Below are positions 1 through 40,812 of a stretch of 64,000 nt of DNA, piece after piece. Source of the stretch: Klebsiella phage ZCKP1. The stretch is taken from the sequence record MH252123.1; one strand, 5' to 3'. The notes under the pieces are model-generated. The model ran no database searches. It had not been told where the DNA came from and was given only the letters and a program-made list of their open reading frames with translations. A program made the position numbers and the translations under genes. Every line of letters begins with the position of its first letter. Within the stretch, counting starts at the first letter, position 1.

Positions 1-16
1 TAATCCAGGAGAAAAT

Positions 17-235
17 ATGACTAAAATGTATGCAGCCGTTGATAAGCTGGATGGGTCTGATTCTGTTTTTATTTTGAATAAAATGGGTGTCTTAGTTTAT
101 GCCCGAACTTCTCAAAACATAGAACACCAAGTGGAAGCAGCACAAATTTTAGAGCAAATAACCCCTCCATACCTATACTCAAATGTTGAGCGTTTTAACG
201 ATGCACTTGGTTTGACGTTAATAGCGGAATGGTAA
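17..235 (+). CDS. hypothetical protein (72 aa)
   Basis: ATG ORF after a purine-rich RBS (aggagaaaat ATG); no recognisable motifs. Confidence 0.45.
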   Translation: MTKMYAAVDKLDGSDSVFILNKMGVLVYARTSQNIEHQVEAAQILEQITPPYLYSNVERFNDALGLTLIAEW

Positions 236-435
236 TAATGGCGAAAATGTTGGAAATTGATAATGTCGTAACAATCACTACGTCCATACCTTGTCCTCCT
301 ATGCCTTGCCCCTATTGTGGTGGTGCAGGATATGTTATGGCGGATGTAGGTCAAATTTACGAGTGCAACCCATGCAAAACCACAGGTTATATCCAAATAG
401 AATCAGAGGAGAAACACTATGAGCCAAAACGCTAA
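229..435 (+). CDS. small zinc-ribbon protein (CPYCGG...CNPC)
   Basis: two Cys pairs; start overlaps previous stop (TAATAATGG). Confidence 0.45.
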   Translation: MVIMAKMLEIDNVVTITTSIPCPPMPCPYCGGAGYVMADVGQIYECNPCKTTGYIQIESEEKHYEPKR

Positions 436-868
436 AGAAAAAGAAGTAATCACGGTAATCCGTCAGATGGAAGGTGCCGAAAACAATGCTTTTGTTACTA
501 AGATTCTTCTTAATATCTTTGAAGATGTTATTTTAAACAACCCTGGTCATAAAGATTATCAGTATGATGTTATGATGGGTGCTTTGCTTGAGATTAACAA
601 AAACACTTTTGCTGAATATGAGCAACACATGCTTTTACCAGAGGAAGATCAGGATTATTTGTTATCTGGTGCTTTAAGTGCACAAGAAAATTTCTACCAC
701 GTTCTTAATATGGCTTATGCAGATGAACTTGCTGTTTCCCTTGAAGAGCGGATTCAAATGGTTCGTGACGTAATGAATGAACAAATCCGAGAAGTTGAAG
801 ATCTGGTAGCAGAGCCTTTAGCAGAAATTCGTGCAGCTATTGAAAAACAAAAAGGAACTCAATCATGA
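419..868 (+). CDS. hypothetical protein (149 aa)
   Basis: ORF with an RBS; overlaps neighbouring genes, consistent with translational coupling. Confidence 0.5.
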   Translation: MSQNAKEKEVITVIRQMEGAENNAFVTKILLNIFEDVILNNPGHKDYQYDVMMGALLEINKNTFAEYEQHMLLPEEDQDYLLSGALSAQENFYHVLNMAYADELAVSLEERIQMVRDVMNEQIREVEDLVAEPLAEIRAAIEKQKGTQS

Positions 869-1032
869 TGCAAGTAGGTGATGTGGTTTGTCTTAAAGGT
901 GCAAACAAACAAATGACAGTAATAGAAAGTTATGGTGAATCTTGTAAAGTAACTTGGTTTGATGAAAACGGGGAGTTGCAACACGCTATATTCGATCAAA
1001 AAGCTTTGAGGAAGGTTGAAGAAAAAGAATGA
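865..1032 (+). CDS. small hypothetical protein (55 aa, below ORF-track cutoff)
   Basis: ATGATG start overlapping the upstream stop (TCATGATG); ends at TGA 1030-1032, overlapping the next ATG. Confidence 0.35.
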   Translation: MMQVGDVVCLKGANKQMTVIESYGESCKVTWFDENGELQHAIFDQKALRKVEEKE

Positions 1033-1292
1033 GCCATCCGTCAATATTTTTCTGTTTTGTAGATCTTGAAAACGAGTCTTTAATCGTTGATAGTGAGGGT
1101 TACTTCACTTATTGGGAATCCGAGCACGAAACTATAAGTGTAGTGAAAGAAATTATGCAAACCAATCCAAACCTACCAGCACATAAGTACGGTATTGCAA
1201 AAGTGTTTGTTACTAAAACAGAGTACACAAAAGAGCGAAGCACTTTGTACCATAATATTGAAGTGATTCACTATTTCAAAGATGTTATTTAG
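1029..1292 (+). CDS. hypothetical protein (87 aa)
   Basis: ORF in a translationally coupled series. Confidence 0.45.
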   Translation: MSHPSIFFCFVDLENESLIVDSEGYFTYWESEHETISVVKEIMQTNPNLPAHKYGIAKVFVTKTEYTKERSTLYHNIEVIHYFKDVI

Positions 1293-1300
1293 GAGGTTAT

Positions 1301-1909
1301 ATGGAAGAGAAGATTTGGGATGGTAAAGATCCTTTAGAAGTTGGACACGTAGCGCGTGTCAAAAAATCTACTACAGGTCCTGGTTTTTCTGGTTTGTATC
1401 ATATACCAGAAGAAGGTCAGCACGTTACAATTTTGGCTCGTGACAAACAAAACGGAGCAACGCCTGTGTGGATTGTTCGTTGGTATGACAAAGATCTTAA
1501 CATTTGCTTGTCACCTATTATGGCTCATTTGCTGGAAGCCCCTTGCTCTGAAGAAGCTCTAATTTTTGTTTCGGCTTTTCAGAAAGCCACAGGTTTAACA
1601 TTAGATGCAAAAGATGTGCAAAAAGCATTTGACATTATTCAGGAAGACAACGATACTACATCTAACGACGAACTGGTTGAAGTTACAATCTTATCTTCAG
1701 CAGATATTCGAGAGATTGATAATTGTGATTTTCCAATCACATTTAAAATGTCACAGAAAGACGTGCAGTCATCTGGAAGTTGTTTTGGTATACCTCGTTG
1801 GTTTTTTGATTCTATCAAAAATTCTACTACAGAGGGATCAGACTATGATCAAGATGACATGCTTTGGTTCTTAAAAAACCGAGAGATTGTTCTCTCACCA
1901 CTTAAGTAA
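1301..1909 (+). CDS. hypothetical protein (202 aa)
   Basis: RBS aggaggttat ATG; no motif recognised. Confidence 0.5.
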   Translation: MEEKIWDGKDPLEVGHVARVKKSTTGPGFSGLYHIPEEGQHVTILARDKQNGATPVWIVRWYDKDLNICLSPIMAHLLEAPCSEEALIFVSAFQKATGLTLDAKDVQKAFDIIQEDNDTTSNDELVEVTILSSADIREIDNCDFPITFKMSQKDVQSSGSCFGIPRWFFDSIKNSTTEGSDYDQDDMLWFLKNREIVLSPLK

Positions 1910-2072
1910 GGAGAAATAATGGTTTCATTTATTGTAGGTGTAGTTGTAGGCTATCTTATTAACAAATATCAAGACGTTATCACGGCAAAAGTAAAAGACA
2001 TTTTAGACTCATCTAAATAATCTATCAAAGCTGCATCTTCAATAGGTGCAGCCTTTTAAAAGGAGATATGGC

Positions 2073-2246
2073 ATGACTAAACGCACTGATTTTAAATGTA
2101 TGCATTGTGGGAAATCTTTTGGGGATCATCAAGCTCGCACATTCAACTGTCCACGTAAAGGTCGCGGAAATTTTAAAGGTTTTAATCCCGCACATGTTTA
2201 TTCTCCAGATTACGATAAGCCAGAAGAAGAAAAATTTGTTATTTAA
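2073..2246 (+). CDS. small zinc-finger protein (CMHCGK...CPRKGRG)
   Basis: RBS aaaaggagatatggc ATG at 2073; internal start chosen over the track start at 2046. Confidence 0.45.
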   Translation: MTKRTDFKCMHCGKSFGDHQARTFNCPRKGRGNFKGFNPAHVYSPDYDKPEEEKFVI

Positions 2247-2258
2247 TAAGGAGGTCAT

Positions 2259-2540
2259 ATGGAACTCGTTCAAGAACTGTATAATGCTTTAGGAGCAAAA
2301 GGAAAAGATTGGCCCGAACATGCGCTTATCGCTATAAGAGACTCCGATGGTGAGATTAAGTTCTCTAGTGTAAGTAAAGAACACATCGTAGAAACAAAGT
2401 TTGGTATTTACATGCGTGGAACTTATTGCTTATTCAACACCAGAATGGTAGAAGCCCCTGTTATCGAGTGTGGAACAAAAGGTTGCCCCACAATCGTAAC
2501 AAAATCTGAATATGAGAAGTTTTTCTACGCTAAAGCTTGA
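2259..2540 (+). CDS. hypothetical protein (93 aa)
   Basis: RBS taaggaggtcat ATG. Confidence 0.5.
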   Translation: MELVQELYNALGAKGKDWPEHALIAIRDSDGEIKFSSVSKEHIVETKFGIYMRGTYCLFNTRMVEAPVIECGTKGCPTIVTKSEYEKFFYAKA

Positions 2541-2583
2541 CACAGAAACAATACTGTAGGATAGTGATCCTATCGTAGCAATA

Positions 2584-2607
2584 GAACCCGCTTCGGCGGG
2601 TTTTTTC
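2584..2607 (+). terminator. rho-independent terminator (AACCCGCTTCGGCGGGTTTTTT)
   Basis: GC hairpin with CTTCGG loop followed by a T6 run. Confidence 0.6.
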
Positions 2608-2631
2608 ATATCTGTAGCAATAGGAGGTCGT

Positions 2632-2862
2632 GTGTTAAATAAAATCGAAGAAGGTTGTATGGCATTTTTGGTAGATAACCCGTTTCCGTTTATGGTTAAG
2701 ATCCACGTAGGAGAGTATTTAGGTAATGACGAATGGGATTGTAGTATCAATAGTGAAATGCACCACTACCAACCAACAATCCTTAAGATGGATCAAATGG
2801 CGCGTATTACAGTAGAGGATGAATTGATTATTGAGTTATACGAGAGAGCACTACACAAGTAA
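2632..2862 (+). CDS. hypothetical protein (76 aa, GTG start)
   Basis: RBS taggaggtc then GTG. Confidence 0.4.
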   Translation: MLNKIEEGCMAFLVDNPFPFMVKIHVGEYLGNDEWDCSINSEMHHYQPTILKMDQMARITVEDELIIELYERALHK

Positions 2863-2895
2863 GCTAGAACCCACCTAAATCAAACAGAGACGCTC

Positions 2896-2927
2896 TAAAA
2901 TAGAAAAGGCACCCAAGTGGGTGCCTT
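2896..2927. terminator. bidirectional terminator hairpin (GGCACCCAAGTGGGTGCC) between convergent units
   Basis: perfect 8-bp stem flanked by A run on one side and T run on the other. Confidence 0.55.
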
Positions 2928-2931
2928 TATT

Positions 2932-3204
2932 TTATTCTTCGTTAGATTGCGTTTCAGACGCGTTAAATTCGGTTTCAGTACAACTTGCTAGGTAACTTAT
3001 GTTTTGCATCACTACAACTACAGGTGTTTGAAGTTTATCTTCTAGCCCAGCAGCCACTTGAGCCAAGGCATTATCAATATTTGATTTCCTAACACCTGTT
3101 CCATGCCCTGTTGCCAAGTAAAGATTACCTTCCCCTTTTTGTGTAGCATTAGCAAAGTAGTAAACGTAATGTGCAAGGTAGTAATCACGGATTTCTTCAG
3201 TCAT
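2932..3204 (-). CDS. hypothetical protein (90 aa)
   Basis: RBS aggagaataaa ATG; last gene of the minus-strand unit. Confidence 0.45.
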   Translation of the reverse strand: MTEEIRDYYLAHYVYYFANATQKGEGNLYLATGHGTGVRKSNIDNALAQVAAGLEDKLQTPVVVVMQNISYLASCTETEFNASETQSNEE

Positions 3205-3215
3205 TTTATTCTCCT

Positions 3216-3243
3216 AATAAGAAAGGGGCCGAAGCCCCCTTGA
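3216..3243 (-). terminator. terminator hairpin GGGGCCGAAGCCCC + T-rich tail (minus sense)
   Basis: stem-loop with the same GGGGCCGAAGCCCC core as the hairpins at 15306 and 19912. Confidence 0.55.
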
Positions 3244-3248
3244 GTGGT

Positions 3249-4049
3249 TTATTTGTTTAAATGGTCTTCAACCATTTTGATAAAGCCTTCATCACTGAAG
3301 ACTGTTCCTGCTTTCTCTCGGTAGACAAGCACTCCACGTTCTTCGTAGAGAGTTTGTTCTACAAAATTCAAACCTGGGTTAACTACAACCATCTTAACCC
3401 CAATATTCAGGGCAGGGAAGAGTTCCCAGTTGAAGTTGATTACTTGGTTAGAGCAGCCTACAACGATAACCATATCTTGTGATGTTAGTTGATCTAGTTT
3501 GTGATACATGTCTGTGTAGAGTGGTGCATTCTCACCAAAAAACACCACATTAGGCTTCACATATTTGTAATCGTCTACATCAATAGCTGCGTAACCCACA
3601 TCTTTGATAATTTTGTTATCAACAACAACTTCTGGCAAGAAACCATGAACGTGCAATATTTCTTCTCTATCGATTCCAGCGCGCTCTAATAGATCGTCAA
3701 CGTTAGTAGTGATGTTAATAATCCTTTCTGCACCGTATTTTTCGAACCATTCTCCAATCTGAAGATGTGCTGGATTCGGGTCAACTTTCTCTAATTCCAC
3801 ACGACGTTTATTGTAGAAGTCGTGAGTTTTACGGTAGAGGTTATATCCTTCCACATCTAAACCACCCATAGCATCAGGAATACCCTGTTCTTGCTGATAA
3901 CCGTCACGGAAGTTGAAAATGTCACAGACTTCTGTTAAATCGTATTCATCCCATAATGCCTTTCCAGAATCTGTTTCTGTGCGAAATGTTTGGATTCCGC
4001 TGTCAGCACTTAGTCCCGCACCACTAATAAAATATACACGTCTTGGCAT
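3249..4049 (-). CDS. cobB: Sir2-family NAD-dependent deacylase/ADP-ribosyltransferase (CobB-like sirtuin without Zn-binding Cys module)
   Basis: FISGAGLSADSGIQTFR, TNVDDLLERAG, HVHGFL, VVFFGE and VVGCSNQV align with bacterial CobB sirtuin motifs; no CxxC pairs. Confidence 0.8.
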   Translation of the reverse strand: MPRRVYFISGAGLSADSGIQTFRTETDSGKALWDEYDLTEVCDIFNFRDGYQQEQGIPDAMGGLDVEGYNLYRKTHDFYNKRRVELEKVDPNPAHLQIGEWFEKYGAERIINITTNVDDLLERAGIDREEILHVHGFLPEVVVDNKIIKDVGYAAIDVDDYKYVKPNVVFFGENAPLYTDMYHKLDQLTSQDMVIVVGCSNQVINFNWELFPALNIGVKMVVVNPGLNFVEQTLYEERGVLVYREKAGTVFSDEGFIKMVEDHLNK

Positions 4050-4522
4050 TATTCGTCCTCCTCAAATGGATCATAAGAATCATATTCGTAAGTATCATCT
4101 TCTGAAAATTCTACTTCGAAATAAATATCAAACTCTGCAAACAGACGTAGGATGTTAGACATGCTGTAATAATTATCGTAGGCAGATTCAGCTTCATAGT
4201 AAACATAAAGCAAATGGTTAGCCTTATCATCTTCCAAATATTTCCCGTCTGCATACGCATAGTCTGCATATGCTTTACCTGCATCTTCCACAAGAGAACG
4301 ATCAAGCAGAGTAGGAAATGGTTTCTCTTTTTCTTTTAGTTTGCTCACCAACCAATGTGCAATATCATTCCATTCTGCATCCATACCACTAAAGCAACTT
4401 GCTTCTTCTCCAAAAGAAGCTTCTCCTAAATCGCCACTAATACGAACAACATTAGATGAACTATAGCCACACGTTTCACAATCAGAGTAACTATTATGCA
4501 CATTAACATTTACTTGAAACAT
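4049..4522 (-). CDS. highly acidic hypothetical protein (157 aa, D/E/Y-rich)
   Basis: ORF coupled to the sirtuin gene by a TAATG overlap. Confidence 0.45.
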   Translation of the reverse strand: MFQVNVNVHNSYSDCETCGYSSSNVVRISGDLGEASFGEEASCFSGMDAEWNDIAHWLVSKLKEKEKPFPTLLDRSLVEDAGKAYADYAYADGKYLEDDKANHLLYVYYEAESAYDNYYSMSNILRLFAEFDIYFEVEFSEDDTYEYDSYDPFEEDE

Positions 4523-4580
4523 ATTCCCTCCTATAAAAGAAAAGCCCCCTGAAACAGGAGGCTTTGTTCAGATATCGGCA

Positions 4581-5234
4581 CTATACCAGACTTTGAAGGT
4601 ATTTGTCAAGGGCTTCTTGATCACCTTGACAAACATAGCAACGGAAGTCTTGAGCCGAAGGTTGTTTATTTTCATCCCAGTCCCAATAAACATTACCCTT
4701 ATAACGTGAACCAGGAAACTCAAAAGAGGCTGTATGTGTAATGTATCCTGGGCCACCAGTGAAATCACAGAATGAGAATTGGGGGTATGCCGCCTTTACT
4801 GCCTCAATAAACCAAGCTTTACGATCTAAGGCTTCATTGATGCTATACGCATGTCTCTCCATTTCTTCCCAAGTCTTCCAGACACTTCTCTCATCAGGAG
4901 AAAAGACAAGCCATTCTGGAAGGTAGAGAGTGTCATAGTAATCATCATATTCGATCTCGGAGGCGCACGAAGCTGACTCCTCCAGTTTTGAGTAATCAAA
5001 AGCAGAATATACCCACCAACCATCTTCCAGTAAGGCTTTGATAGGGACGAAGCCTTTATCAGCATATTGATCGAATTGTTTGACACGGTGGCTTGTGCAG
5101 TCTTCAAACTCACATTCTAAACGATATGCACCTTTTCGACGAGCCTCAAGACCGTGTGTACTGAAAATAACAACACTTCCTTCACCATCATTACGATCTA
5201 CTTGATAAGCAACCACTGGTTTTGAATTTGACAT
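4581..5234 (-). CDS. hypothetical protein (217 aa)
   Basis: ORF in the same operon; no motif recognised. Confidence 0.5.
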   Translation of the reverse strand: MSNSKPVVAYQVDRNDGEGSVVIFSTHGLEARRKGAYRLECEFEDCTSHRVKQFDQYADKGFVPIKALLEDGWWVYSAFDYSKLEESASCASEIEYDDYYDTLYLPEWLVFSPDERSVWKTWEEMERHAYSINEALDRKAWFIEAVKAAYPQFSFCDFTGGPGYITHTASFEFPGSRYKGNVYWDWDENKQPSAQDFRCYVCQGDQEALDKYLQSLV

Positions 5235-5917
5235 TATTTCTCCTTATCTAGAAGATTGTTAGACAAAAACACTGCACGAGCAAAACCACGTGCGGTTAGT
5301 GATCTAAGTTGTTTTGTTTTTGCACTAGCTCCACCTAAGCTTTTCCAACCCCAGAAGCAGCCTATATGATCTACTGGTTTCTTCACTGGTTGAACAAAAC
5401 CATTGCCGTGCCAAATACAAGTTTTCTTTGTATACCCATCACGGGTAGGCATTTTAGGATGAAAGCTTCCTTCCTCTTCAAACAAATACCCACCATACTC
5501 ATAAGGATCAAAGTAAAAATCGGGTTTACGCCATAAGGTTGAAAGTTTACCTACTGGGTTCTCAATCATCCAAGGAACATTATATTTGTTACCCAAAGCT
5601 TCCACTACACGAATATTAGCTAAAGCTTCATCTAGTTCCTCTGTGCTACGTTCGTGTTTGCTACCACTACCTGCTAACATAGTGCAAGGTGGAAATCCAA
5701 AAATAATATCGGGTTTAGGTATCCCATGATCTTCAGGGTTGAATGTAGAATCTATCCAGGCATTCACATAGGTTATGTTTGGGTGCTCCATCCTAACCTC
5801 GTATTTACCGTGATCCCCTTCATCAGCGTTTACACAAAAACACTTGTGACCTGCTTCGGCATAACGTAACACCATGATCCCAGATCCGTCAAACATAGAC
5901 AAAACTGTTTTACTCAT
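5234..5917 (-). CDS. C5-cytosine methyltransferase-like protein (motifs I FDGSG, IV PPC, VI ENP) lacking an obvious target-recognition domain
   Basis: LSMFDGSG, GFPPCTMLAGSG and MIENPVG; start moved to internal ATG at 5917 (ATGA overlap with upstream stop, RBS GGAGGGG). Confidence 0.55.
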   Translation of the reverse strand: MSKTVLSMFDGSGIMVLRYAEAGHKCFCVNADEGDHGKYEVRMEHPNITYVNAWIDSTFNPEDHGIPKPDIIFGFPPCTMLAGSGSKHERSTEELDEALANIRVVEALGNKYNVPWMIENPVGKLSTLWRKPDFYFDPYEYGGYLFEEEGSFHPKMPTRDGYTKKTCIWHGNGFVQPVKKPVDHIGCFWGWKSLGGASAKTKQLRSLTARGFARAVFLSNNLLDKEK

Positions 5918-6323
5918 TACCCCTCCATTCAAGACAAGCCATAACTTTACGCCAATCACTTTCTGTAAGAAAAATCTCGTTTGCTTTCTTCCACAAATCT
6001 AAATCGTGAAGGGTTGGAATACGATATGTTAGTTCACAGAATCTATGCTCTTCTTCTGTAATATAACCAAAATGCAGAGCCACATCGTGAAACCAACACC
6101 AACCATGCATCTCTCGAACAACATGGTCATGTTGAGACATTATTTTATGCCGTAAACCTAACCAACAAGGAACAGATACTTTAGTAGTCTTTAATCTGTG
6201 ATCAACAGTATTAGAGTATTCAATAATAGCTGTCAGTTTCAATCGTGCTTTTTCTAAATCCTCATGCGTCACTTTGAAATAACTTTCTGAAAGATATCCA
6301 CACATATTAATAACCTCCTTCAA
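5910..6323 (-). CDS. hypothetical protein (137 aa, His/Trp-rich HDHVVREMHGWCWFHD)
   Basis: ORF overlapping both neighbours. Confidence 0.45.
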   Translation of the reverse strand: MKEVINMCGYLSESYFKVTHEDLEKARLKLTAIIEYSNTVDHRLKTTKVSVPCWLGLRHKIMSQHDHVVREMHGWCWFHDVALHFGYITEEEHRFCELTYRIPTLHDLDLWKKANEIFLTESDWRKVMACLEWRGNE

Positions 6324-7248
6324 AAGGCTTTACTACATGTTGATTAGCTTTAAAACGTTCAACATAGTCGTTTTCGCCCATGTTTTCATATAGCTTAGTA
6401 ACAACATAAAAGTTTTCCCAAGCATATTCCCTAAACCAACCACTAGTGATGGATGTGCAGACTTTAGATAAAGCCATTATAAAACTTTGCTTAGGGGTTG
6501 GACCTCCGATCTCTCCACCGAAAGGAATTTGTGAACGTTCCAAAGCCAAAACACACGCTTCTTCATAAACACCTAACAGGCGCACATGTTTTGGTTGAGC
6601 AAAAAACTTTTCTTTGCTGGTCATAACTTCACTTCCATCTTTCATATAAGATTTATATGCCGGAGCATCCATTACCGCGATTGCTTCATGGATAGAATCA
6701 TGATCATAAACATACGGAACCTCATCACCTTTAAAAAAGTCTTTACTTTTTACGTTTAAGTTCGGATGAGAGTAAGTGTATGTTTCTTTCTCACGCAACT
6801 CATAAATACTCTTAAGATTTTCTGGGATCTTTGCGCCCAGTGACCGCATGAAATGAATATCTTTCATAGTTTTAAAGAAGTGAGGACTATCCTTTTTAAA
6901 ACGATGACTCATTTTAAGAAGGTAGAGCACATCTAAAGGAGCAACAACATGTCCAGCGTAAGTTCGACGAACATCATCAGAATCTTCACAGTAACTAATC
7001 AAAGCTTCTGTGCTATCTCCTTGAGAAGCAATATCGTATTCCAAATGTGCACCAGCTATCATTTTGACATGGCCTTTGTTTCCTTTACGTTCTACAAGTT
7101 CAACAAACTCATCTTGAGAGAACATTTTTGATAATTCTTCCCACTCTTGTTCTGTACACAGGTAATCTAAATCTACACAAGGGCGATACAAGTCTTTTCC
7201 CATGTCCATAGCATGAATTTGTAATGCACGGCTACCAATTAACACCAT
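6307..7248 (-). CDS. nucleotidyltransferase-fold (pol-beta superfamily) protein
   Basis: N-terminal LIGSRALQIHAMDMGKDLYRPCVDLDYL matches the G[SG]-x(9-13)-DxD minimal NTase motif; RBS gaggagaaatatt ATG. Confidence 0.45.
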   Translation of the reverse strand: MVLIGSRALQIHAMDMGKDLYRPCVDLDYLCTEQEWEELSKMFSQDEFVELVERKGNKGHVKMIAGAHLEYDIASQGDSTEALISYCEDSDDVRRTYAGHVVAPLDVLYLLKMSHRFKKDSPHFFKTMKDIHFMRSLGAKIPENLKSIYELREKETYTYSHPNLNVKSKDFFKGDEVPYVYDHDSIHEAIAVMDAPAYKSYMKDGSEVMTSKEKFFAQPKHVRLLGVYEEACVLALERSQIPFGGEIGGPTPKQSFIMALSKVCTSITSGWFREYAWENFYVVTKLYENMGENDYVERFKANQHVVKPFEGGY

Positions 7249-7278
7249 AATATTTCTCCTCTATTGGTTGATAGGTTA

Positions 7279-7308
7279 AGTTTATCAAGCTTCCAGATTC
7301 CTGTCAAT
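7279..7308 (-). promoter_or_regulatory. sigma70-like promoter (TTGACA-18-TAAACT) driving the NTase-to-Sir2 operon
   Basis: on the minus strand, TTGACAGgaatctggaagcttgaTAAACT immediately follows the terminator T-run. Confidence 0.4.
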
Positions 7309-7334
7309 AAAAAACCCGCCGAAGCGGGTTATTA
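7309..7334 (-). terminator. terminator hairpin AACCCGCTTCGGCGGGTTTTTT (minus sense)
   Basis: GC stem, CTTCGG loop and T-run when read on the minus strand. Confidence 0.6.
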
Positions 7335-7338
7335 TTTA

Positions 7339-7611
7339 CTAACACATTGAGGAAGAAGAGATCCAAACACCTCTTGTGGTTAAACCATTTTCATCCAACT
7401 CTACACCATAATCTTCACAAATGAAATCAATATAGTGATCTGCGGCTGGCGTTCCTGTAGGGTAATAAGTTTCTCCGTTACCGTAGTCACCTATCCAAGC
7501 TTGTTCCTGAAACTGTTCACAAAGTTCTTCAATCTCCTTACGAAACTTTCTTTGTGCTTGTTCCATCTCTTTAACTTTCTTTTTTATCAGCAGTTCGCCT
7601 TCAGACTCCAC
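7339..7611 (-). CDS. small acidic protein, C-terminal GVWISSSSMC
   Basis: GTG start after AAGGAG; member of the W-x-S-S-S-C tail family. Confidence 0.5.
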   Translation of the reverse strand: MESEGELLIKKKVKEMEQAQRKFRKEIEELCEQFQEQAWIGDYGNGETYYPTGTPAADHYIDFICEDYGVELDENGLTTRGVWISSSSMC

Positions 7612-7620
7612 AATCTCTCC

Positions 7621-7839
7621 TTAACAGCTACTACTGTGCCAAACGCCTTGAGAATTAACGACGAAACCATCATCACCTTCACCATAACAAGAAGAGGATT
7701 GCCAATCTTCAAAACAGATTGCGTCATTTTCTAAACTAAGACCAAAACCAGCATCTTCAGCTTCTTTTGTAAGTTCGTCCACTAAAGCCATAATAGCTTG
7801 GGCTTTTTCAGTTAATTCTTCAACATTACGATCACTCAT
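7621..7839 (-). CDS. small acidic protein with two copies of W-[QH]-S-S-S-C (internal DWQSSSC, terminal GVWHSSSC)
   Basis: internal ATG at 7839 preceded by AGAGGAGAAATACTA; paralogue of 7339 and 8120. Confidence 0.5.
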   Translation of the reverse strand: MSDRNVEELTEKAQAIMALVDELTKEAEDAGFGLSLENDAICFEDWQSSSCYGEGDDGFVVNSQGVWHSSSC

Positions 7840-8147
7840 TAGTATTTCTCCTCTGGTTGGAAAACTGAACGACAAGCCCACATAGAAGCTTCTTTCAACT
7901 TAGTCTTTGCTATTGAAATTTGGTCAAGGCGGGTGGATATATTGGTAGACTCTTCCAAATCTTCACAATCATCCAGTTCAGCCCACAATTCAGACATTAG
8001 AGCATCAAAGATTAATCCTAATCGAACTTCAGCATCTTTAATAGCATTCACTTTACCAATTTTGTCATCGGTATGCGGTTTATAACCTTTGATATCTTCG
8101 ATTCCCACTTTACCTCCTATTAACAACTTAAAGAAGATGGATGCCAA
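7839..8147 (-). CDS. hypothetical protein (102 aa)
   Basis: ORF in a coupled array. Confidence 0.4.
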   Translation of the reverse strand: MASIFFKLLIGGKVGIEDIKGYKPHTDDKIGKVNAIKDAEVRLGLIFDALMSELWAELDDCEDLEESTNISTRLDQISIAKTKLKEASMWACRSVFQPEEKY

Positions 8148-8317
8148 TTTGTTCCAGTATTCTCATTTTCATCTTCTGGATCATAATAACCACCCATCCC
8201 ATATTCAGGGGAGAAACTGAAACCTTCACCAGTCTCGTCTGCTAACTGTTCTGCTTCCGCTAAAGCCTCATAAGCTGCTTTTACGGCTTCTTCTACTGTT
8301 TTAAACTTGGTCGTCAT
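8120..8317 (-). CDS. small acidic protein, C-terminal NWHPSSLSC
   Basis: RBS ggagaggagaaatttt ATG; same C-terminal Trp/Ser/Cys motif. Confidence 0.5.
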   Translation of the reverse strand: MTTKFKTVEEAVKAAYEALAEAEQLADETGEGFSFSPEYGMGGYYDPEDENENTGTNWHPSSLSC

Positions 8318-8591
8318 AAAATTTCTCCTCTCCTAAAGACATGTTGACATGAAATGCGCGGTATGTAAATTCGTTGTCCGTTGTGTTAGAATAAAACTCA
8401 AATTGAACAACACCGTCTTGAGAAGACAGATACATGCCAATTTGAACTGTTCCTTCTGGTACCAGGTAAGCATACTCTGGACGTAGTGTTACATTGTAAA
8501 AATAAAGTTCCCCAACACCCATTTCATCCCAAGCTTCCCAAGCGGTAACGAAGTTACTTTCAAAACTTGTTACTGATCCGAACTCTGCCAT
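8301..8591 (-). CDS. hypothetical protein (96 aa)
   Basis: start overlaps the upstream stop. Confidence 0.45.
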   Translation of the reverse strand: MAEFGSVTSFESNFVTAWEAWDEMGVGELYFYNVTLRPEYAYLVPEGTVQIGMYLSSQDGVVQFEFYSNTTDNEFTYRAFHVNMSLGEEKFYDDQV

Positions 8592-9082
8592 AAAACCTCC
8601 TCAATCTTGTAGTTTGACTCCATCTCCAACACATTTCCACGAACGTCTCTCCGAAGAAAGGCATAAGCTTTATTAGGTATTGTAGACTCATATTTAACCA
8701 TGTCTGGCACAGCAAAAGATACTACTACTCCTGCTGGGCTTCTGTCAAGAGCCTTATTAATATTTCTAAGGATATCGTTAGCCAAGATTTCTGCCAATTC
8801 TCCAAGAACAGTTTCGGTTATATCTTTATATCCCATTAAATATTTGTTGATATCTTTCATCTCTGCATTGTTCAGAGTATAGTCTAAAGGATAAAAATTC
8901 AAAGCGGAGTCACTTTTATGTGTCCACATGAAATGCACCCGATCCGAGCAGAATCGTAACCCTCTACGAAGAATATCTTCTACAACAGGGAGAATTTCTT
9001 TTGTCACATCGTTAACCATGTTGTAATCTAAGATTTCTGCCAAGTTTGTTCTTTGTTCACCACGTTTACGTCTAGGAATCAC
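8570..9082 (-). CDS. hypothetical protein (170 aa) ending ...VLWQSSDQ
   Basis: ORF; C-terminus shares the W-Q-S-S motif with the small-protein family. Confidence 0.5.
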   Translation of the reverse strand: MIPRRKRGEQRTNLAEILDYNMVNDVTKEILPVVEDILRRGLRFCSDRVHFMWTHKSDSALNFYPLDYTLNNAEMKDINKYLMGYKDITETVLGELAEILANDILRNINKALDRSPAGVVVSFAVPDMVKYESTIPNKAYAFLRRDVRGNVLEMESNYKIEEVLWQSSDQ

Positions 9083-9653
9083 TTGTTATCGCCCTCATTA
9101 CCAAAGGTCGTAGAAAATCGTAAATCTCTTGTTTTGTTTTCCCACGAATGTTTAAACAAGGAACATTATTGGCTTTAGCTATCTTCCAAGCCGTAGCTGT
9201 TCCACCTTTTGCATCTCCATGTTTATCAGTATTAGCACAAGCCAACAAGAAACATGATGGAGCAGGATTCTCCAAATCTCTGCCTAACACTTGATGCACA
9301 TTACGTTGGTGCAATTTTCTAGCACCCTGCTTAAGCTTTTCATAAGCTGGGTGAACATCTTTGATCCATTGCACAGAGATAGCATAGTTCATTGTATCTG
9401 GTTTTGCAAGAACAATAACATCACCTGGAATCTGATTACCTTTGAAATTTTCCCAAGGAACATAAATTTCCTTGTTAGTAGGATTTTCAGACTCTTGGAC
9501 ACCTGTTTCAAAAGCAGAATCACTACCCTCTGCCTTACCAGACCGTAATTTAAACCCAAGGTTTGAAAGCCATTTCCCTATGCCTACCATCAAAGCCCAC
9601 TCTTCTTCAGATATGTCCCTACTTCCAACTCCCGTATAGAACAGTTCTGCCAT
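9072..9653 (-). CDS. SLOG/DprA-like Rossmann-fold protein
   Basis: FYTGVGSRDIS, RSGKAEGSDSAFETG and GGTATAWKIAKANNVP resemble the DprA/Smf-LOG family; internal start at 9653 after GAGGTGA. Confidence 0.45.
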   Translation of the reverse strand: MAELFYTGVGSRDISEEEWALMVGIGKWLSNLGFKLRSGKAEGSDSAFETGVQESENPTNKEIYVPWENFKGNQIPGDVIVLAKPDTMNYAISVQWIKDVHPAYEKLKQGARKLHQRNVHQVLGRDLENPAPSCFLLACANTDKHGDAKGGTATAWKIAKANNVPCLNIRGKTKQEIYDFLRPLVMRAITSDS

Positions 9654-9660
9654 AATCACC

Positions 9661-9969
9661 TCAACAAGTAATTTCAAAAGGTGTATAGGGTTCCGTATTT
9701 CTCATGATCCAAGGACTGCTAGGATTGCTCGGATCATAAGGACCAAAAGGTTTTATGGTAGGTTGTGTTTCTTTCTTCTGAATCTCTTCAAAAATACGAC
9801 GAAGTTCAGAATATTCTTGATCCACCATAAGATTCGGTGCATCTGATTCTACAGCTTGCAGGTTATCTTCCTTAAGAACAATCTCACGAACAAGATTAAC
9901 ATCTTCTGTTTCTAAGATAACTTCTTTACGGATATTACCTACACTTTGAATAATTGTAATCTTATACAT
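9661..9969 (-). CDS. hypothetical protein (102 aa)
   Basis: ORF. Confidence 0.45.
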   Translation of the reverse strand: MYKITIIQSVGNIRKEVILETEDVNLVREIVLKEDNLQAVESDAPNLMVDQEYSELRRIFEEIQKKETQPTIKPFGPYDPSNPSSPWIMRNTEPYTPFEITC

Positions 9970-10712
9970 TAATCCTCCTCAAGAGTTGAATAAAATTGAA
10001 GACCACCGTCCATATCGAAATAAGCAAATGTTAAGTTATTATTGAACACAGATCCAGTATCCATATAAACACGATTCGCATTGATAATAGGTGTTTTTAC
10101 ATAAGAGTGTCCATGAAACACATAATCCACACCCATCACAACAGGAAGTTTCATTCCCTCTTTAGCACAGTCTACCATATCTCTGTCCCACATAAGTGCT
10201 TCAGCAAAACGGTTTTCCTGTGTTTTTGTCATCTTCGAAATGTATTCTGGAATATCTGTTACAGGGAGATATTCCAAAGAAGATGGATACCCACCATGAA
10301 TAAACGCAAGTTTCATGCCTCTGTAGTTAACAATGAGAACAACAGGTAAATCTTCTGTCATCATTGCTAAGGCTGTAGCTCCTTCTTCACCACATTCTTC
10401 AAAGACCGTATATCCTCCATTTTGATACCAACACTCGTAGTAGCTACGATCTCCTTCCAGCATACCTTTAATCATCATGTCTTCATGATTGCCACGAATA
10501 GCGTAGCGATTGTGTTTACGAGTAAATTCTAAAACACAACGAAAGTTTTGCTTTCCACGGTCAGTAAGATCTCCTAGAGATACAACCACATCTGTATCTC
10601 GGATACCTAACTTTGCCTTTCCTTTTTCATACAAATTATAACAACCGTGTAGATCTCCAATTATAAAAAGATCTTGATCGCTTTTAACAGTAATTTCTCT
10701 GTGTATGATCAC
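9969..10712 (-). CDS. Ser/Thr protein phosphatase (PPP/lambda-phosphatase/ApaH family metallophosphoesterase)
   Basis: GDLHGC, GDLTDRG and RGNHE signature motifs. Confidence 0.8.
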   Translation of the reverse strand: MIIHREITVKSDQDLFIIGDLHGCYNLYEKGKAKLGIRDTDVVVSLGDLTDRGKQNFRCVLEFTRKHNRYAIRGNHEDMMIKGMLEGDRSYYECWYQNGGYTVFEECGEEGATALAMMTEDLPVVLIVNYRGMKLAFIHGGYPSSLEYLPVTDIPEYISKMTKTQENRFAEALMWDRDMVDCAKEGMKLPVVMGVDYVFHGHSYVKTPIINANRVYMDTGSVFNNNLTFAYFDMDGGLQFYSTLEED

Positions 10713-11038
10713 TTATCCTCCTCAAAATCTAAGAAAATAAAAATATTCACCTTTCCTTCAATCTCTTGTTCTAAAACAAGATCGGCAAATTCTGCATATG
10801 CTTTCTCTTCAACTTTTTCAATATGTTCTGCGGCATCTTTAAAAGGCGTATCCCCATCCACCTTTACTAATAAGAAAAGAGATCGCATTTCGACGCTTTT
10901 ACTGTTACGAGGAAGGAAATCTACAGCTTCAACAATTCTCCAACCCAAATAGCCAGGGGTTTTATGAATCTCCCCTAAATACTTTTCTAAGATTTTACGA
11001 CCCTCGTCGATAAGGGCTTGTTCTGTAGTAATTTCCAT
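10709..11038 (-). CDS. hypothetical protein (109 aa)
   Basis: ORF. Confidence 0.45.
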   Translation of the reverse strand: MEITTEQALIDEGRKILEKYLGEIHKTPGYLGWRIVEAVDFLPRNSKSVEMRSLFLLVKVDGDTPFKDAAEHIEKVEEKAYAEFADLVLEQEIEGKVNIFIFLDFEEDK

Positions 11039-11048
11039 TCCTTCCTCC

Positions 11049-11639
11049 TCAAATTATTAACGAAACCGCATGACTAAATCTTGGTTCAGATATAACCTCT
11101 GCTACAGTCACATATGTATCGTGCAGCCAAAAAGATTCTACTCTACAAACACAAATACCGTTGATAATGAAATCTACACAGGCTTTATTATTTTCGCACA
11201 CTTGTTGACTATAAACAACCCCTAAAGAGTCATAAAGTGATCTCACTGTTGCTACCATTTCATCTGTCTCGTCTTCCTGTGAAACAAAGAAAACGAATAC
11301 AGACAAGTTGTTAGCGAAAGTACTGCTATTCTCTACTTCAACCGACTTACAAGGTAAAAAGGAGTAATATTTACCGTTAGGTATCAATTTCGCCTCAACC
11401 TGGTTAAGTATGCTTTGAGATGGTTTTGTTACATAAAAAAGATTTTCTGTTGGGTTTTCAACATTACTCCTTACTATGCAACGAGTGGGGTTCGAAGGAT
11501 CAAAAACATGATCAAAATCGACACACACAGGTAGGTTAACAACTTTAAACTTTTTGCTAAGAATGCTTACTGCTGTAAAAATCAAACCAGCATTTATTTT
11601 GCCAGTGAAAGTTGAACGCATAACTACTCCTCGGATCAT
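11049..11639 (-). CDS. hypothetical protein (196 aa)
   Basis: ORF. Confidence 0.45.
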   Translation of the reverse strand: MIRGVVMRSTFTGKINAGLIFTAVSILSKKFKVVNLPVCVDFDHVFDPSNPTRCIVRSNVENPTENLFYVTKPSQSILNQVEAKLIPNGKYYSFLPCKSVEVENSSTFANNLSVFVFFVSQEDETDEMVATVRSLYDSLGVVYSQQVCENNKACVDFIINGICVCRVESFWLHDTYVTVAEVISEPRFSHAVSLII

Positions 11640-11830
11640 TCTACCAAAGAGAATTCCGCCTCTTCCAGGTAGATTACAGACCTTGTTGCATGATATTTAA
11701 CGCTCCAGAAATTACCTTCGCGCCGTAAAAGTATCTCATTCACATCAAGATTGCTTAGAAAAACCATATAACTTAAAGCTTGTTGACGCGTTGAGAATTG
11801 TTTCTCTAAAAGTTCTTCTCCGCTCTGCAT
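11636..11830 (-). CDS. hypothetical protein (64 aa)
   Basis: RBS taaggagggatt ATG. Confidence 0.4.
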   Translation of the reverse strand: MQSGEELLEKQFSTRQQALSYMVFLSNLDVNEILLRREGNFWSVKYHATRSVIYLEEAEFSLVE

Positions 11831-11842
11831 AATCCCTCCTTA

Positions 11843-11871
11843 AAAATACTCCCTCCGAGAAGGGAGTATAA
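11843..11871 (-). terminator. stem-loop ACTCCCTCCGAGAAGGGAGT (probable terminator/processing site)
   Basis: inverted repeat between genes. Confidence 0.35.
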
Positions 11872-11876
11872 ATATA

Positions 11877-12080
11877 TCACGTAGTTGTTATGTTGCCTTC
11901 TTGGATACTAGAATCCACTTCTGCAAACATATCTTCTGCACTATAATTATTTCCAGTCCAGCGTGATAAAAGGATAGCACCAATCTCTTTTGCATGAGAT
12001 TCAGACTCCGCATAAACGTTAGTCCCAGTGTCACCTTTCTTCTTTTCATGTGCATAAATGCAGTAATAATTGTAAGCCAT
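11877..12080 (-). CDS. hypothetical protein (67 aa)
   Basis: ORF. Confidence 0.4.
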   Translation of the reverse strand: MAYNYYCIYAHEKKKGDTGTNVYAESESHAKEIGAILLSRWTGNNYSAEDMFAEVDSSIQEGNITTT

Positions 12081-38742: not shown

Positions 38743-38817
38743 GGCCCTGTAGCTCAATGGGAGAGCTGTCGGCTCATAACCGATAGGTAGCTGGATCGAA
38801 ACCAGCCAGGGCCACCA
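38743..38817 (+). tRNA. tRNA-Met/Ile2 (anticodon CAT), CCA encoded
   Basis: cloverleaf folded by eye: acceptor GGCCCTG/CAGGGCC, anticodon loop CTCATAA, T-loop GGATCGAAACC. Confidence 0.75.
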
Positions 38818-38819
38818 AC

Positions 38820-38894
38820 GTCTTTATGGTGTAATGGATAGCACAGGAGTCTTCTAAACTCTTAGTCAAGGTTCGATTCCTTGTAAAGACACCA
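38820..38894 (+). tRNA. tRNA-Arg (anticodon TCT), CCA encoded
   Basis: acceptor GTCTTTA/TAAAGAC, loop CTTCTAA, T-arm CAAGGTTCGATTCCTTG. Confidence 0.7.
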
Positions 38895-39090
38895 GAACAT
38901 TTTAACATGAATTAGCTCAAGTGATTTGAACACACTACTGATCATGGTGGTAGAGAATGAGGCAAGTATGTCAGACATTATAAACAAAGGCCACGGTTAT
39001 ATTAGAAGACATAAATGCTCGAAGAGCACCGTTCGTGGAGAACGGGGGTTGGTGGAGTCACCATTCATGGTAAAATGTTTTAAAAAACTA

Positions 39091-39120
39091 TTGACAACTA
39101 ACATTATTTTATGTTAGATT
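39091..39120 (+). promoter_or_regulatory. sigma70 promoter (ctaTTGACAa-18-TAGATT) ahead of the second tRNA block
   Basis: consensus -35 with the extended upstream context. Confidence 0.45.
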
Positions 39121-39128
39121 ATAAGTAT

Positions 39129-39219
39129 GGAAGGGCAAATCGACGTGGCGACGAAAACGGTCTTGAAAACCGCCGAGCTTGAAAGAGCCTTGGGAGTTCG
39201 ACTCTCCCTCCTTCCGCCA
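39129..39219 (+). tRNA. tRNA-Ser (anticodon TGA), long variable arm, CCA encoded
   Basis: acceptor GGAAGGG/TCCTTCC, loop CTTGAAA, variable-arm hairpin, T-arm GGGAGTTCGACTCTCCC. Confidence 0.7.
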
Positions 39220-39223
39220 GATT

Positions 39224-39309
39224 GGTAGATTGGTGAAATGGTAGCCACGACAGTTTGCTAAACTGTAGTCGGAAACGGCGTGTAGGTTCGAGTCCTACAT
39301 CTACCGCCA
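39224..39309 (+). tRNA. tRNA-Ser (anticodon GCT), long variable arm, CCA encoded
   Basis: acceptor GGTAGAT/ATCTACC, stem ACAGT/ACTGT, loop TTGCTAA, T-arm GTAGGTTCGAGTCCTAC. Confidence 0.75.
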
Positions 39310-39439
39310 AGTTCTTTTTAATATAGCTTACTTTAGCAGAGTAAATCTTCGGCAAGTGGCGGTAACCACTTTACCGATAACTCATAGTTAGTGGTGTGAA
39401 CACTGGCTATTTTAAAAAGAATTTAAATATTAGTATTTA

Positions 39440-39527
39440 GGTGAGTTAATTCCGTAGGGGTAGCGGGGCAGACTGTAAATCTGTTATCATTGCGATTCGG
39501 GTGGTTCGACTCCATCACTCACCACCA
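39440..39527 (+). tRNA. tRNA-Tyr (anticodon GTA), long variable arm, CCA encoded
   Basis: GCAGACTGTAAATCTGT anticodon arm identical in type to bacterial tRNA-Tyr; acceptor GGTGAGT/ACTCACC. Confidence 0.7.
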
Positions 39528-39533
39528 AATTAA

Positions 39534-39619
39534 GATGAGTTGGCTGAATGGTTTAAGCGGCGGACTGTTAATCCGTGTTCGAAAGAACGATATAGGTTCA
39601 AATCCTATACTCATCGCCA
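39534..39619 (+). tRNA. atypical tRNA with Asn anticodon arm (GTT) plus 15-nt variable-arm hairpin, CCA encoded
   Basis: anticodon arm GCGGACTGTTAATCCGT equals the E. coli tRNA-Asn arm; variable region GTTCGAAAGAACGAT forms GTTC/GAAC hairpin; discriminator G. Confidence 0.55.
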
Positions 39620-39626
39620 GAATTAT

Positions 39627-39704
39627 GGACTTGTAGAGTTAAGGTAAACCCCCCAGTCGCCAAGAGGCTTCTGAAATTGCAGGTATCGAATCCTGCCGAG
39701 TCCC
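39627..39704 (+). ncRNA. degenerate tRNA-like element (good acceptor and T-arm, no canonical anticodon arm)
   Basis: acceptor GGACTTG/CGAGTCC and GCAGG-TATCGAAT-CCTGC T-arm with 8-nt loop; middle region forms CAGtcGCCaagaGGCttCTG hairpin instead of an anticodon arm; no CCA. Confidence 0.35.
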
Positions 39705-39710
39705 AGCTTT

Positions 39711-39785
39711 GCTCCTATAGTATAATGGCTATTACAACGGTTTTGTAATCCGTGGATCTCTGTTCGATTCAGAGTGGGAGCACCA
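39711..39785 (+). tRNA. tRNA-Thr (anticodon TGT), CCA encoded
   Basis: acceptor GCTCCTA/TGGGAGC, loop TTTGTAA, T-arm CTCTGTTCGATTCAGAG. Confidence 0.65.
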
Positions 39786-39964
39786 ACACAACATTAAGGG
39801 CACTGTGATTGATCGTCGTATCCTGTGCACAAGGTCTGTTCGAAAGACAGTGTTCTTAGTATTGTGTTGATCACAAAAAGAGTCACCTGAAACTTGACCG
39901 GAGTAGGGTTGGATGGGGCAAAAGAAGAAGCGGCTCTCCCATCGACAGCAACGAAGAATAATAT

Positions 39965-39993
39965 TTGACTTTGGTTTTGTATTATTTTAAGTT
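39965..39993 (+). promoter_or_regulatory. sigma70 promoter (TTGACT-17-TAAGTT) upstream of higA-like gene
   Basis: good -35/-10 hexamers with 17-nt spacer. Confidence 0.4.
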
Positions 39994-40140
39994 AGCTTAC
40001 CGAACGTAGGGCTAGTCACCCAACGGGATACTCGTCACTGTCCCACTCAAAGAAAAGAAGAACCAAACTGTTAACGTTAAGAAAAAATTACCCTTAACTA
40101 ATCCATTTTATCACAAATGGATTTCATATGTCAATATGTT

Positions 40141-40160
40141 TGCGCGTTGCACAGCGCGCA
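40141..40160 (+). promoter_or_regulatory. palindromic operator-like site TGCGCG-ttgcacag-CGCGCA immediately upstream of higA RBS
   Basis: perfect 6-bp inverted repeat 25 nt before the start codon. Confidence 0.45.
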
Positions 40161-40184
40161 AAATCAGAGTATTTAGGAGGTTAC

Positions 40185-40526
40185 ATGGTCACATTGCACA
40201 AACCTATGCACCCCGGCGAGTTTATCCGCGAAGTATATTTAGAGCCGTTAGAGCTTCAAATAGGAACGTTTGCAGAAAAGCTTGGTGTTGATACATCAAC
40301 CGTTAGCCGGTTAGTAAACCAAAAAGCTGACCTTTCTTATGAAATGGCATTACGCCTATCAAAAGCCTTAGGGCGTTCTGCTGACTCTTGGATGAAAATG
40401 CAAATAGCATATGGTTTATATCGTGCTCAAGATAAAGTAAATCTTGAAGAAGTTGAGGTGGTTTACTGCCCACGGAACTTGGATGCTCCTGAAAAACAGG
40501 TCCATGAATTTTATGAAAATATCTAA
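40185..40526 (+). CDS. higA: HigA-family antitoxin-like XRE helix-turn-helix protein (no cognate toxin ORF found)
   Basis: MHPGEFIREVYLEPL...TFAEKLGVDTSTVSRLVNQKADLSYEMALRLSKALGRSADSWMKMQ matches the HigA/VapI antidote family; RBS AGGAGG-5nt-ATG. Confidence 0.7.
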   Translation: MVTLHKPMHPGEFIREVYLEPLELQIGTFAEKLGVDTSTVSRLVNQKADLSYEMALRLSKALGRSADSWMKMQIAYGLYRAQDKVNLEEVEVVYCPRNLDAPEKQVHEFYENI

Positions 40527-40702
40527 AAACGATATTTCATTTAGGTAAAGAAAAGCTACTAACCATAGGGGCTTTTTGTCTCTACACCTGTGTATTTATG
40601 TGAAGACCTAAGGCAGCATCGTTATTCCTGAAGATGCTTAAACAGCGGTCTTGTACACCCTGTTACCACGGTTCAGAAGTTCCCCAACTTACTGAACATT
40701 CG

Positions 40703-40733: not shown

Positions 40734-40771
40734 AGGATTAAAGATACTCTGCGTCCCACTCAATAAAACTA

Positions 40772-40801: not shown

Positions 40802-40812
40802 AAAGATATAGG

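Follow-up and report, generated by a model that had tools for sequence, protein, structure and literature searches.

Six genes lie side by side on the minus strand of Klebsiella phage ZCKP1 (sequence record MH252123.1), between positions 7248 and 3249 of a 64,000-nucleotide (nt) stretch that was analysed as a whole and is called the window here. An earlier note on this DNA described the six as a single operon behind its own promoter, and proposed that they make up one undescribed pathway for modification, NAD or anti-defence functions. All six open reading frames (ORFs) are present where that note had placed them. They are listed with their window coordinates, strand and products (lengths in amino acids, aa).

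Gene 1: 6307..7248, minus strand; 313 aa, a nucleotidyltransferase (NTase) with Pfam domains DUF7277 and DUF7275 and a MenT-like fold
Gene 2: 5910..6305, minus strand; 131 aa (137 aa if started at TTG 6323), a lineage-restricted unknown
Gene 3: 5234..5917, minus strand; 227 aa, a small orphan Dcm-like C5-cytosine DNA methyltransferase
Gene 4: 4581..5234, minus strand; 217 aa, an unknown acidic protein with an isoelectric point (pI) of 4.6
Gene 5: 4049..4522, minus strand; 157 aa, a very acidic protein with an invariant CxxC and a third Cys
Gene 6: 3249..4049, minus strand; 266 aa, a CobB-class sirtuin without a zinc ribbon

The description of these genes as a tightly overlapped array holds for the junctions within genes 1 to 4 and for the junction of genes 5 and 6. 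Genes 1 and 2 have a 1-nt spacer (the gene 1 stop codon is at 6309-6307 and the gene 2 ATG at 6305), genes 2 and 3 overlap by 8 nt, and the gene 3/4 and gene 5/6 pairs each overlap by 1 nt. The description fails between genes 4 and 5, which are separated by a 58-nt gap that the earlier note had missed. Gene 2 had been given a length of 137 aa; it most likely starts at ATG 6305 and encodes 131 aa, because a Shine-Dalgarno sequence, GAAGGAGG, lies 8 nt before this ATG and the annotation of phage ASO2A also begins the gene at the corresponding ATG. The remarks on composition stand, with 10 His and 6 Trp in gene 2, and a pI of 4.05, 36 Asp plus Glu and 16 Tyr in gene 5.

The following transcription signals accompany the genes.

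Upstream terminator of the preceding gene: 7313..7330, minus strand; AACCCGCTTCGGCGGGTT and a T-run, fold -14.8 kcal/mol, z -4.0
Promoter P1: 7279..7307, minus strand; TTGACA-17-TAAACT with an extended TG, 10 of 12 consensus positions, driving unit A (genes 1 to 4)
Promoter P2: 4580..4609, minus strand; TTGACA-18-TATAGT with a TG, 11 of 12 consensus positions, lying over the final codons and stop codon of gene 4
Internal hairpin terminator: 4541..4565, minus strand; 11-bp stem with 6 G-C pairs, then the TTTTCTTTTAT T-run, -16.4 kcal/mol, z -3.96
Final terminator: 3223..3241, minus strand; AAGGGGGCTTCGGCCCCTT and a T-run, ending unit B (genes 5 and 6), with a fold z of only -1.3

As had been claimed, a promoter directly follows a minus-strand terminator (the hairpin at 7330-7313, then P1 at 7307-7279, which begins 5 nt past it), and the array ends at a terminator, a hairpin with a T-run at 3241-3223. 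What does not survive is the single uninterrupted operon. The gap between genes 4 and 5 holds a hairpin terminator (4565-4541), and P2 (4609-4580) overlaps the end of gene 4. Of the promoter matches in the first 12 kb of the window P2 is the strongest, and the internal hairpin lies 15 nt after its -10 hexamer. An Rfam scan of window positions 1-12000 found no RNA families. Promoter-like matches as a class are barely above chance (41 found versus 33 in shuffles), so the case for P1 and P2 comes from their conservation in relatives, not from the pattern match.

The 4.5 kb around the array is 99.2% identical in nucleotide comparison to Escherichia phage MirsaeidiM_Esher1 and 93-98% identical to phAPEC8, ESCO13, nieznany and ~60 other Phapecoctavirus genomes (Stephanstirmvirinae); judged by its sequence, the window is part of a phAPEC8-like Phapecoctavirus myovirus with a genome of the 150-kb type. 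In Phapecoctavirus records the six genes carry the labels hypothetical protein, “Dcm/DNA methyltransferase” and “Sir2.” More distant relatives share the signals. The upstream hairpin is in the same place in the IMG/VR locus L006, KP2025 and phi92, and P1 is kept right after it in each (L006 9938-9966, KP2025 2417-2445, phi92 4921-4893). P2 is also kept, with 11 of 12 consensus positions in L006 and KP2025 and 12 of 12 in phi92 and JohannJBalmer; in the latter two the stop codon of gene 4 is TAA rather than TAG, so that the -10 hexamer reads as a perfect TATAAT. The arrangement of P2 followed by the hairpin is found in the window and in all four of these relatives (L006 12652-12720; phi92, locus L002, 2691-2757; KP2025, locus L004, 5129-5193; JohannJBalmer, locus L171, 2373-2438), with the spacing from the -10 hexamer to the hairpin fixed at 15-16 nt. 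The final terminator is kept in the same four, and the depositors of ASO2A annotated terminators at all three homologous positions. The array proteins of the relatives that share P2 and the hairpin are only 31-67% identical (51-67% for the gene 4 protein, which lies under P2). Because the P2-hairpin and terminator-P1 pairs are conserved in relatives that have diverged this far, the array is best read as two units. Unit A would run from P1 at 7307 to the terminator at 4541 and carry four translationally coupled genes (1 to 4), and unit B would run from P2 at 4609 to the terminator at 3223 and carry the coupled genes for the acidic CxxC protein and the zinc-less sirtuin of CobB type.

Do the six genes travel together? 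A tblastn search against 50,697 phage genome records gave the following distributions.

Gene 1 (NTase): 733 records; T4-like Dhakavirus, Aeromonas and Acinetobacter phages, Pseudomonas Otagovirus, jumbo phages, actinophages
Gene 2: 111 records; all Stephanstirmvirinae-like phages
Gene 3 (methylase): 1486 records; mostly Drexlerviridae and Webervirus, also Vequintavirinae, Krischvirus and temperate phages
Gene 4: 148 records; Stephanstirmvirinae-like phages and a few Vibrio, Pseudomonas and Xanthomonas phages
Gene 5: 127 records; Stephanstirmvirinae-like phages
Gene 6 (Sir2): 979 records; T5-like, rV5-like and Vibrio nt-1-like phages

Neighbourhoods were surveyed in IMG/VR loci with 10 kb on each side, 80 with an NTase homologue and 80 with a methylase homologue. 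In 73 of the 80 NTase loci the 10-kb flanks hold no other member of the array. Six have the methylase, gene 4 and Sir2 nearby, and these six are the nearest relatives, at 53% identity or more; the remaining one has a methylase homologue alone, 3 kb upstream. Likewise, 75 of the 80 methylase loci lack other array members and five have some. Array members were thus not found to co-occur beyond one lineage in either set (6/80 NTase loci, 5/80 methylase loci). The earlier note had proposed a check on the synteny of the six genes in related phages and named its absence as grounds against the idea. Synteny proved to be confined to Stephanstirmvirinae-like phages, and even there members are missing or swapped. 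All six genes are together in Phapecoctavirus and in loci L006, L007 and L008. Gene 5 is absent from KP2025, a Klebsiella phage, and Sir2 also stands without gene 5 in L009-L011; L009 lacks gene 2, and its genes 1 and 3 are adjacent. In phi92 there is no NTase gene, and a 329-aa PF00145 methylase (E 3e-44) lies between the homologues of genes 2 and 4. This canonical methylase, gp043 (L002 3464-4453), occupies the exact slot of the 227-aa Dcm-like enzyme, and the comparison indicates that one methylase type has replaced another in situ between phi92 and the phAPEC8-like phages. JohannJBalmer (a BASEL isolate, MZ501084) retains of gene 4 only the final 91 codons, with P2, the hairpin, a gene 5 homologue and Sir2 after them. 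Its bas62_0185 (L171 2126-2401) is the C-terminal 91-aa remnant of a gene 4 homologue, 98% identical to phi92 gp041 residues 111-203. With gene 5 and Sir2 intact next to this remnant, a natural deletion has removed unit A and spared unit B in a viable phage; the remnant marks the loss of the stretch with gene 2, the methylase and gene 4.

We put the probability at roughly 0.72 that the six-gene array is two adjacent transcription units of independently distributed accessory genes that act separately, and not one system. The region resembles the accessory arms typical of large virulent phages, where genes acquired independently of one another stand close together behind promoters of the host type. 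In the proposed scheme host RNA polymerase would transcribe the region, presumably early, as part of the accessory arm of a phAPEC8-like myovirus, and the adjacency of the six genes would reflect lineage history in a gene-shuffling region with no shared pathway. The central idea of the earlier note is contradicted by the conserved internal terminator and promoter, by the unrelated distributions of the genes, and by the replacements and deletions within the lineage. This removes a false lead, since the combination of Sir2, NTase and methylase resembles a defence or anti-defence system yet is apparently an accident of lineage history.

Several observations weigh against this reading. First, P2 lies upstream of the hairpin, so transcripts from P2 would carry a terminator at ~+9 to +33. 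Expression of unit B may therefore come partly from P2 and partly from read-through. The hairpin could possibly act on P2 transcripts as an attenuator or a 5' stabiliser. Second, the order 1-(2)-3-4-(5)-6 persists down to ~50% protein identity (L010, L093). Genes 1 to 4 are tightly coupled and keep their order, and some functional linkage within the lineage is conceivable. Third, gene 3 falls below the Pfam cutoff for the canonical methylase family PF00145 (11.4 bits versus 22), with a match limited to residues 18-106.

There is evidence on both sides of a narrower proposal, that unit B is a two-protein module in which gene 5 is a partner, regulator or targeting subunit of the sirtuin, possibly supplying a metal-binding element in trans. 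The identification of gene 6 as a zinc-less CobB-like sirtuin was right. The protein scores 74.5 bits against PF02146 (cutoff 24), and NCBIfam deacylase models match it below their cutoffs. Its GAGLS, TTNVDD, HVHG and FFGE align with the GAGxS, TxNxD, catalytic HG and FGE motifs of Sir2Af2 and CobB. The zinc-ribbon cysteines are indeed missing, as no Cys stands where the CxxC...CxxC of 1ma3 and 1s5p aligns, and the entire sequence contains just 2 Cys. Identity to the proteins of T5-like phages, rV5-like phages/Vequintavirinae and phi92, in family phrog_2162, is 48-67%. Phage Sir2/CobB proteins have been called enigmatic, and their modified finger domain and its stability have been discussed (PMC5107563); a literature search on phAPEC8 and Sir2 found nothing. 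Gene 5, for its part, has C15 and C18 (the CxxC), C43 and a GDLG motif invariant among its homologues.

In favor of a module, the gene 5 stop overlaps the Sir2 start in the window, L006, L007, phi92 and JohannJBalmer, and gene 5 is coupled to Sir2 wherever it is found. The pair has its own conserved promoter and hairpin, was kept together where unit A was deleted, and sets three invariant Cys in gene 5 against none in the zinc module of Sir2. However, Sir2 is frequent without gene 5 (979 records versus 127), including in KP2025 and L009-L011, and T5-like phages have the same Sir2 (58% identity to gene 6) with unrelated small genes upstream. A secondary idea is that the zinc-less phage sirtuin depends on the CxxC protein as an obligate partner, and we regard the module as a tentative proposal, on balance rather unlikely.

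Gene 1 is a true NTase fold of the pol-beta superfamily, as the earlier note had recognized. Its structural model is predicted with confidence (predicted local distance difference test, pLDDT, 90.6) and matches MenT1/3/4, ANT(2''), LnuA and TM1012, the closest solved relatives being the MenT tRNA-NTase toxins. An aminoglycoside NTase of the ANT(6)/KNTase type, suggested by GSR...DxD, was considered and set aside, since ANT(2'') and LnuA match more weakly than the MenT toxins. In a set of 55 diverse representatives (38-50% identity), G5 and D28 never vary, S6 and D26 are at least 90% conserved, and the metal-binding motif hG[GS]...[DE]h[DE]h is present on the NTase alpha/beta fold. The helical lobe has further residues invariant in all 55 (K112, H115, K126, H183, D184, H187, E229, E230, E237, R238, K262 and R273). 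The invariant motif and charged residues fit an active enzyme. Pfam gave no AbiEii (DUF1814) match at E <= 1, and a profile search of PDB sequences returned no MenT; K112...R116 and D182-x-D184 could match motifs III and IV of the AbiEii-MenT family. No antitoxin gene lies directly upstream of gene 1, where there is a terminator and a promoter. The family is abundant (1593 clusters at 50% identity), and its members usually stand alone in variable regions among unrelated small ORFs. No mention of DUF7275 or DUF7277 was found in the literature.

The fold raises the idea that gene 1 belongs to a large MenT-like phage NTase family acting on tRNA 3' ends, either to repair or mask tRNAs that are hit by defences or to shut off host translation. 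Of 60 loci with an NTase homologue (L034-L078), 30 have a tRNA cluster no more than 10 kb away on the same strand, in most cases upstream, a count that is confounded by shared synteny, as these are mostly related T4-like genomes. The nearest clusters are 0.44 kb (L057) and 0.6 kb (L038) from the NTase homologue. The proximity is a hint only, and in the window the tRNA cluster is 31 kb from gene 1. That cluster (38743-41468, plus strand) has 10 tRNA genes, for Met, Arg, Ser, Asn, Thr, Gly, Gln, Pro, Ile and Met. We consider a role at tRNA 3' ends unlikely. If it were true, lytic phages would have, in the DUF7277/DUF7275 family, their own version of a bacterial toxin fold.

Gene 3 was correctly described as a C5-methylase-like protein with a very short stretch in the position of the target-recognition domain, and the FDGSG, PPC and ENP motifs are present. 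It matches phrog_757 at 7e-85. Among 33 homologues, D10, G11, S12 and G13 (motif I FDGSG, the F-x-G-x-G of S-adenosylmethionine binding), P76 and C78 (motif IV) and E119, N120 and P121 (motif VI ENP) are invariant. The C-terminal RSLT-RGFARAV motif of the family is invariant too, with ~85 aa between ENP and RSLT, and identity within the family exceeds 60% across very different phages and prophages. The AlphaFold model has a pLDDT of 86.7, and the solved structures matched by Foldseek are led by DNMT3B/3A catalytic domains (E 3e-7), followed by M.HaeIII (6e-6). A search of PDB sequences with a methylase profile gave nothing usable, a single-sequence phmmer search gave only M.HaeIII at E 0.08, and NCBIfam models had no match to genes 1-5. 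PADLOC gave weak type II methylase matches for gene 3 and no match at E <= 1 for the NTase or Sir2, which argues against kinship with defence systems. PF13289, which stands for the defence-type Sir2 of ThsA, DSR and SIR2-HerA, scores gene 6 at 14.5 bits, below the cutoff of 24.5.

A close parallel to gene 3 has been studied experimentally. The 711-bp dcm gene of the Drexlerviridae phage K42 encodes an active enzyme that puts 5-methylcytosine (5mC) in the multicopy single-stranded DNA (msDNA) of retron Ec86, as seen by liquid chromatography-mass spectrometry, at the site CCWGG (bioRxiv 10.1101/2023.08.16.553469). The same study reports that C82A/E128A/K175A/K176A inactivate K42 Dcm, that the protein superposes on DNMT3A, and that it triggers retron Ec86; K42 is described there by comparison with KarlJaspers (Bas06). 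Another retron paper deals with an N6-adenine methylase and has no bearing on gene 3. The KarlJaspers gene bas06_0055 is exactly 711 bp, the same as K42 dcm, and was used as a stand-in. Gene 3 is 50% identical to it over the full length (231 columns, E 1e-71), and C78, E119, K164 and K165 of gene 3 align to C82, E128, K175 and K176. Full-length homology and four aligned key residues make gene 3 a member of a known family of active small orphan Dcm enzymes, and at 50% identity to the tested family it probably makes 5mC.

The only library match of gene 2 is phrog_16551. A metal-binding role was rejected for this protein, since its His and Cys, like most of its Trp, are not conserved among homologues; two Trp are. 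Gene 4 matches phrog_8514, and its relatives form only 14 clusters in a set of 5.8 billion proteins, which added no function.

Could unit A nevertheless be a functional cassette, with flanking proteins that direct or extend the methylase, or with a toxin-like NTase restrained by the 131-aa protein? Translational coupling joins its four genes, the methylase slot has homologues of genes 2 and 4 on either side even in phi92 with its replaced methylase, JohannJBalmer lost the unit in a single deletion ending inside gene 4, and MenT-type NTases are normally paired with antitoxins (PMC7450476). Yet the MenA antitoxin gene precedes that of the toxin and does not follow it (PMC7450476), gene 2 is absent from 77 of the 80 NTase loci, and 75 of the 80 methylase loci have neither gene 2 nor gene 4. 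L009 has genes 1 and 3 adjacent without gene 2, and phi92 has genes 2, 4 and a substitute for 3 without gene 1. Distant gene 4 homologues, in Vibrio Vhmlvirus and a Pseudomonas phage, are found in replication-gene neighbourhoods beside exonuclease, primase or ligase genes and with no methylase. A cassette is therefore improbable. As for one operon serving a single new pathway, with the NTase, the methylase-like enzyme and Sir2 acting on a common substrate, the six genes do follow one another on a single strand, flanked by two terminators and preceded by a promoter, and are all together in Phapecoctavirus, L006, L007 and L008, but comparative data already speak largely against it and leave it a very slim chance, with a conserved internal terminator and promoter splitting the array, no co-occurrence of the six genes beyond the lineage, viable relatives without gene 1 (phi92), gene 5 (KP2025) or genes 1-4 (JohannJBalmer), a methylase family that is active alone in E. 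coli, and the same Sir2 alone in T5-like phages.

What would the genes do, read as separately acting accessory functions? First, the methylase would put 5mC on phage (and host) DNA, for a narrow protection against methylation-sensitive restriction. The protection would be narrow because these phages stay very sensitive to restriction systems (BASEL paper, PMC8594841). CCWGG is not avoided in the window (68 sites versus 64 expected), which is compatible with protection by methylation and proves nothing. Second, the methylase may have the side effect of triggering methylation-sensing retrons. The small Dcm family of T1-like phages, which is the Ec86 trigger there, is also present in phAPEC8-like myoviruses, and sensitivity of these myoviruses to methylation-sensing retrons is predicted from its presence. 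Third, gene 6 is probably an NAD-dependent protein-modifying enzyme, given its intact catalytic motifs; the sirtuin would use NAD+ to deacylate or ADP-ribosylate host or phage proteins. Fourth, the modelled fold of gene 1 suggests that the NTase would transfer a nucleotide to an RNA or small-molecule acceptor. The earlier note had not recognized the array as a described phage system. Gene 3, however, belongs to a family with published 5mC activity, and the Sir2 is of the long-noted phage CobB type, not the defence type. The methylase and sirtuin are thus of families already described, the NTase is of an uncharacterised MenT-like family, and genes 2, 4 and 5 are lineage-specific unknowns. Any potential for discovery is confined to the NTases, an abundant phage family with a MenT-like fold, and perhaps to the gene 5-Sir2 pair.

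Other features of the same part of the window were observed alongside the array. Three tandem small acidic ORFs lie upstream of it (7339-7611, 7621-7881 and 8120-8317, all on the minus strand). They have a common N-terminal V-E-E...L helix and an invariant C-terminal W-x-S-S-(x)-C end, and these common motifs mark them as a small paralogous family. Further upstream, in the same minus-strand arm, are a DprA-like protein (9072-9677) and a NinI-like Ser/Thr phosphatase (9969-10712), with names taken from the annotation of the phi92, ASO2A and JohannJBalmer homologues. A bidirectional terminator hairpin, AAAGGCACCCAAGTGGGTGCCTTT, stands at 2905-2928, where the plus- and minus-strand gene arms converge, and the GC skew changes sign near 3 kb of the window.

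How do the array proteins compare with known systems? The sirtuin shares its NAD-binding and catalytic motifs, and the absence of zinc-ribbon cysteines, with the phage CobB/Sir2 proteins of T5-like phages, rV5-like phages and large Vibrio phages. Unlike the T5-like Sir2, it follows, and is coupled to, an acidic CxxC protein without a counterpart in T5-like phages. The NTase differs from the MenT/AbiEii (DUF1814) proteins in that its C-terminal DUF7275 lobe is larger and only ~145-170 of its 313 residues align, and in that its family is stand-alone in lytic phages, with no antitoxin upstream. Canonical PF00145 enzymes such as M.HaeIII and phi92 gp043 have the same catalytic core and motif order as gene 3, which is 100 aa shorter and has almost no target-recognition domain; identity to phi92 gp043 is 25% and limited to the N-terminal 128 aa. 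The closest likeness is to K42 Dcm, KarlJaspers bas06_0055 and phrog_757, which are similar in size (227 aa for gene 3 versus 236 aa). Gene 3 shares with the K42 Dcm type motifs I, IV and VI, the four inactivation-sensitive residues, a DNMT3-like fold and an orphan state without a cognate nuclease. It differs in its setting, a 150-kb myovirus rather than a Drexlerviridae siphovirus, and, while CCWGG specificity was reported on msDNA for K42, gene 3 is only 50% identical to that type.

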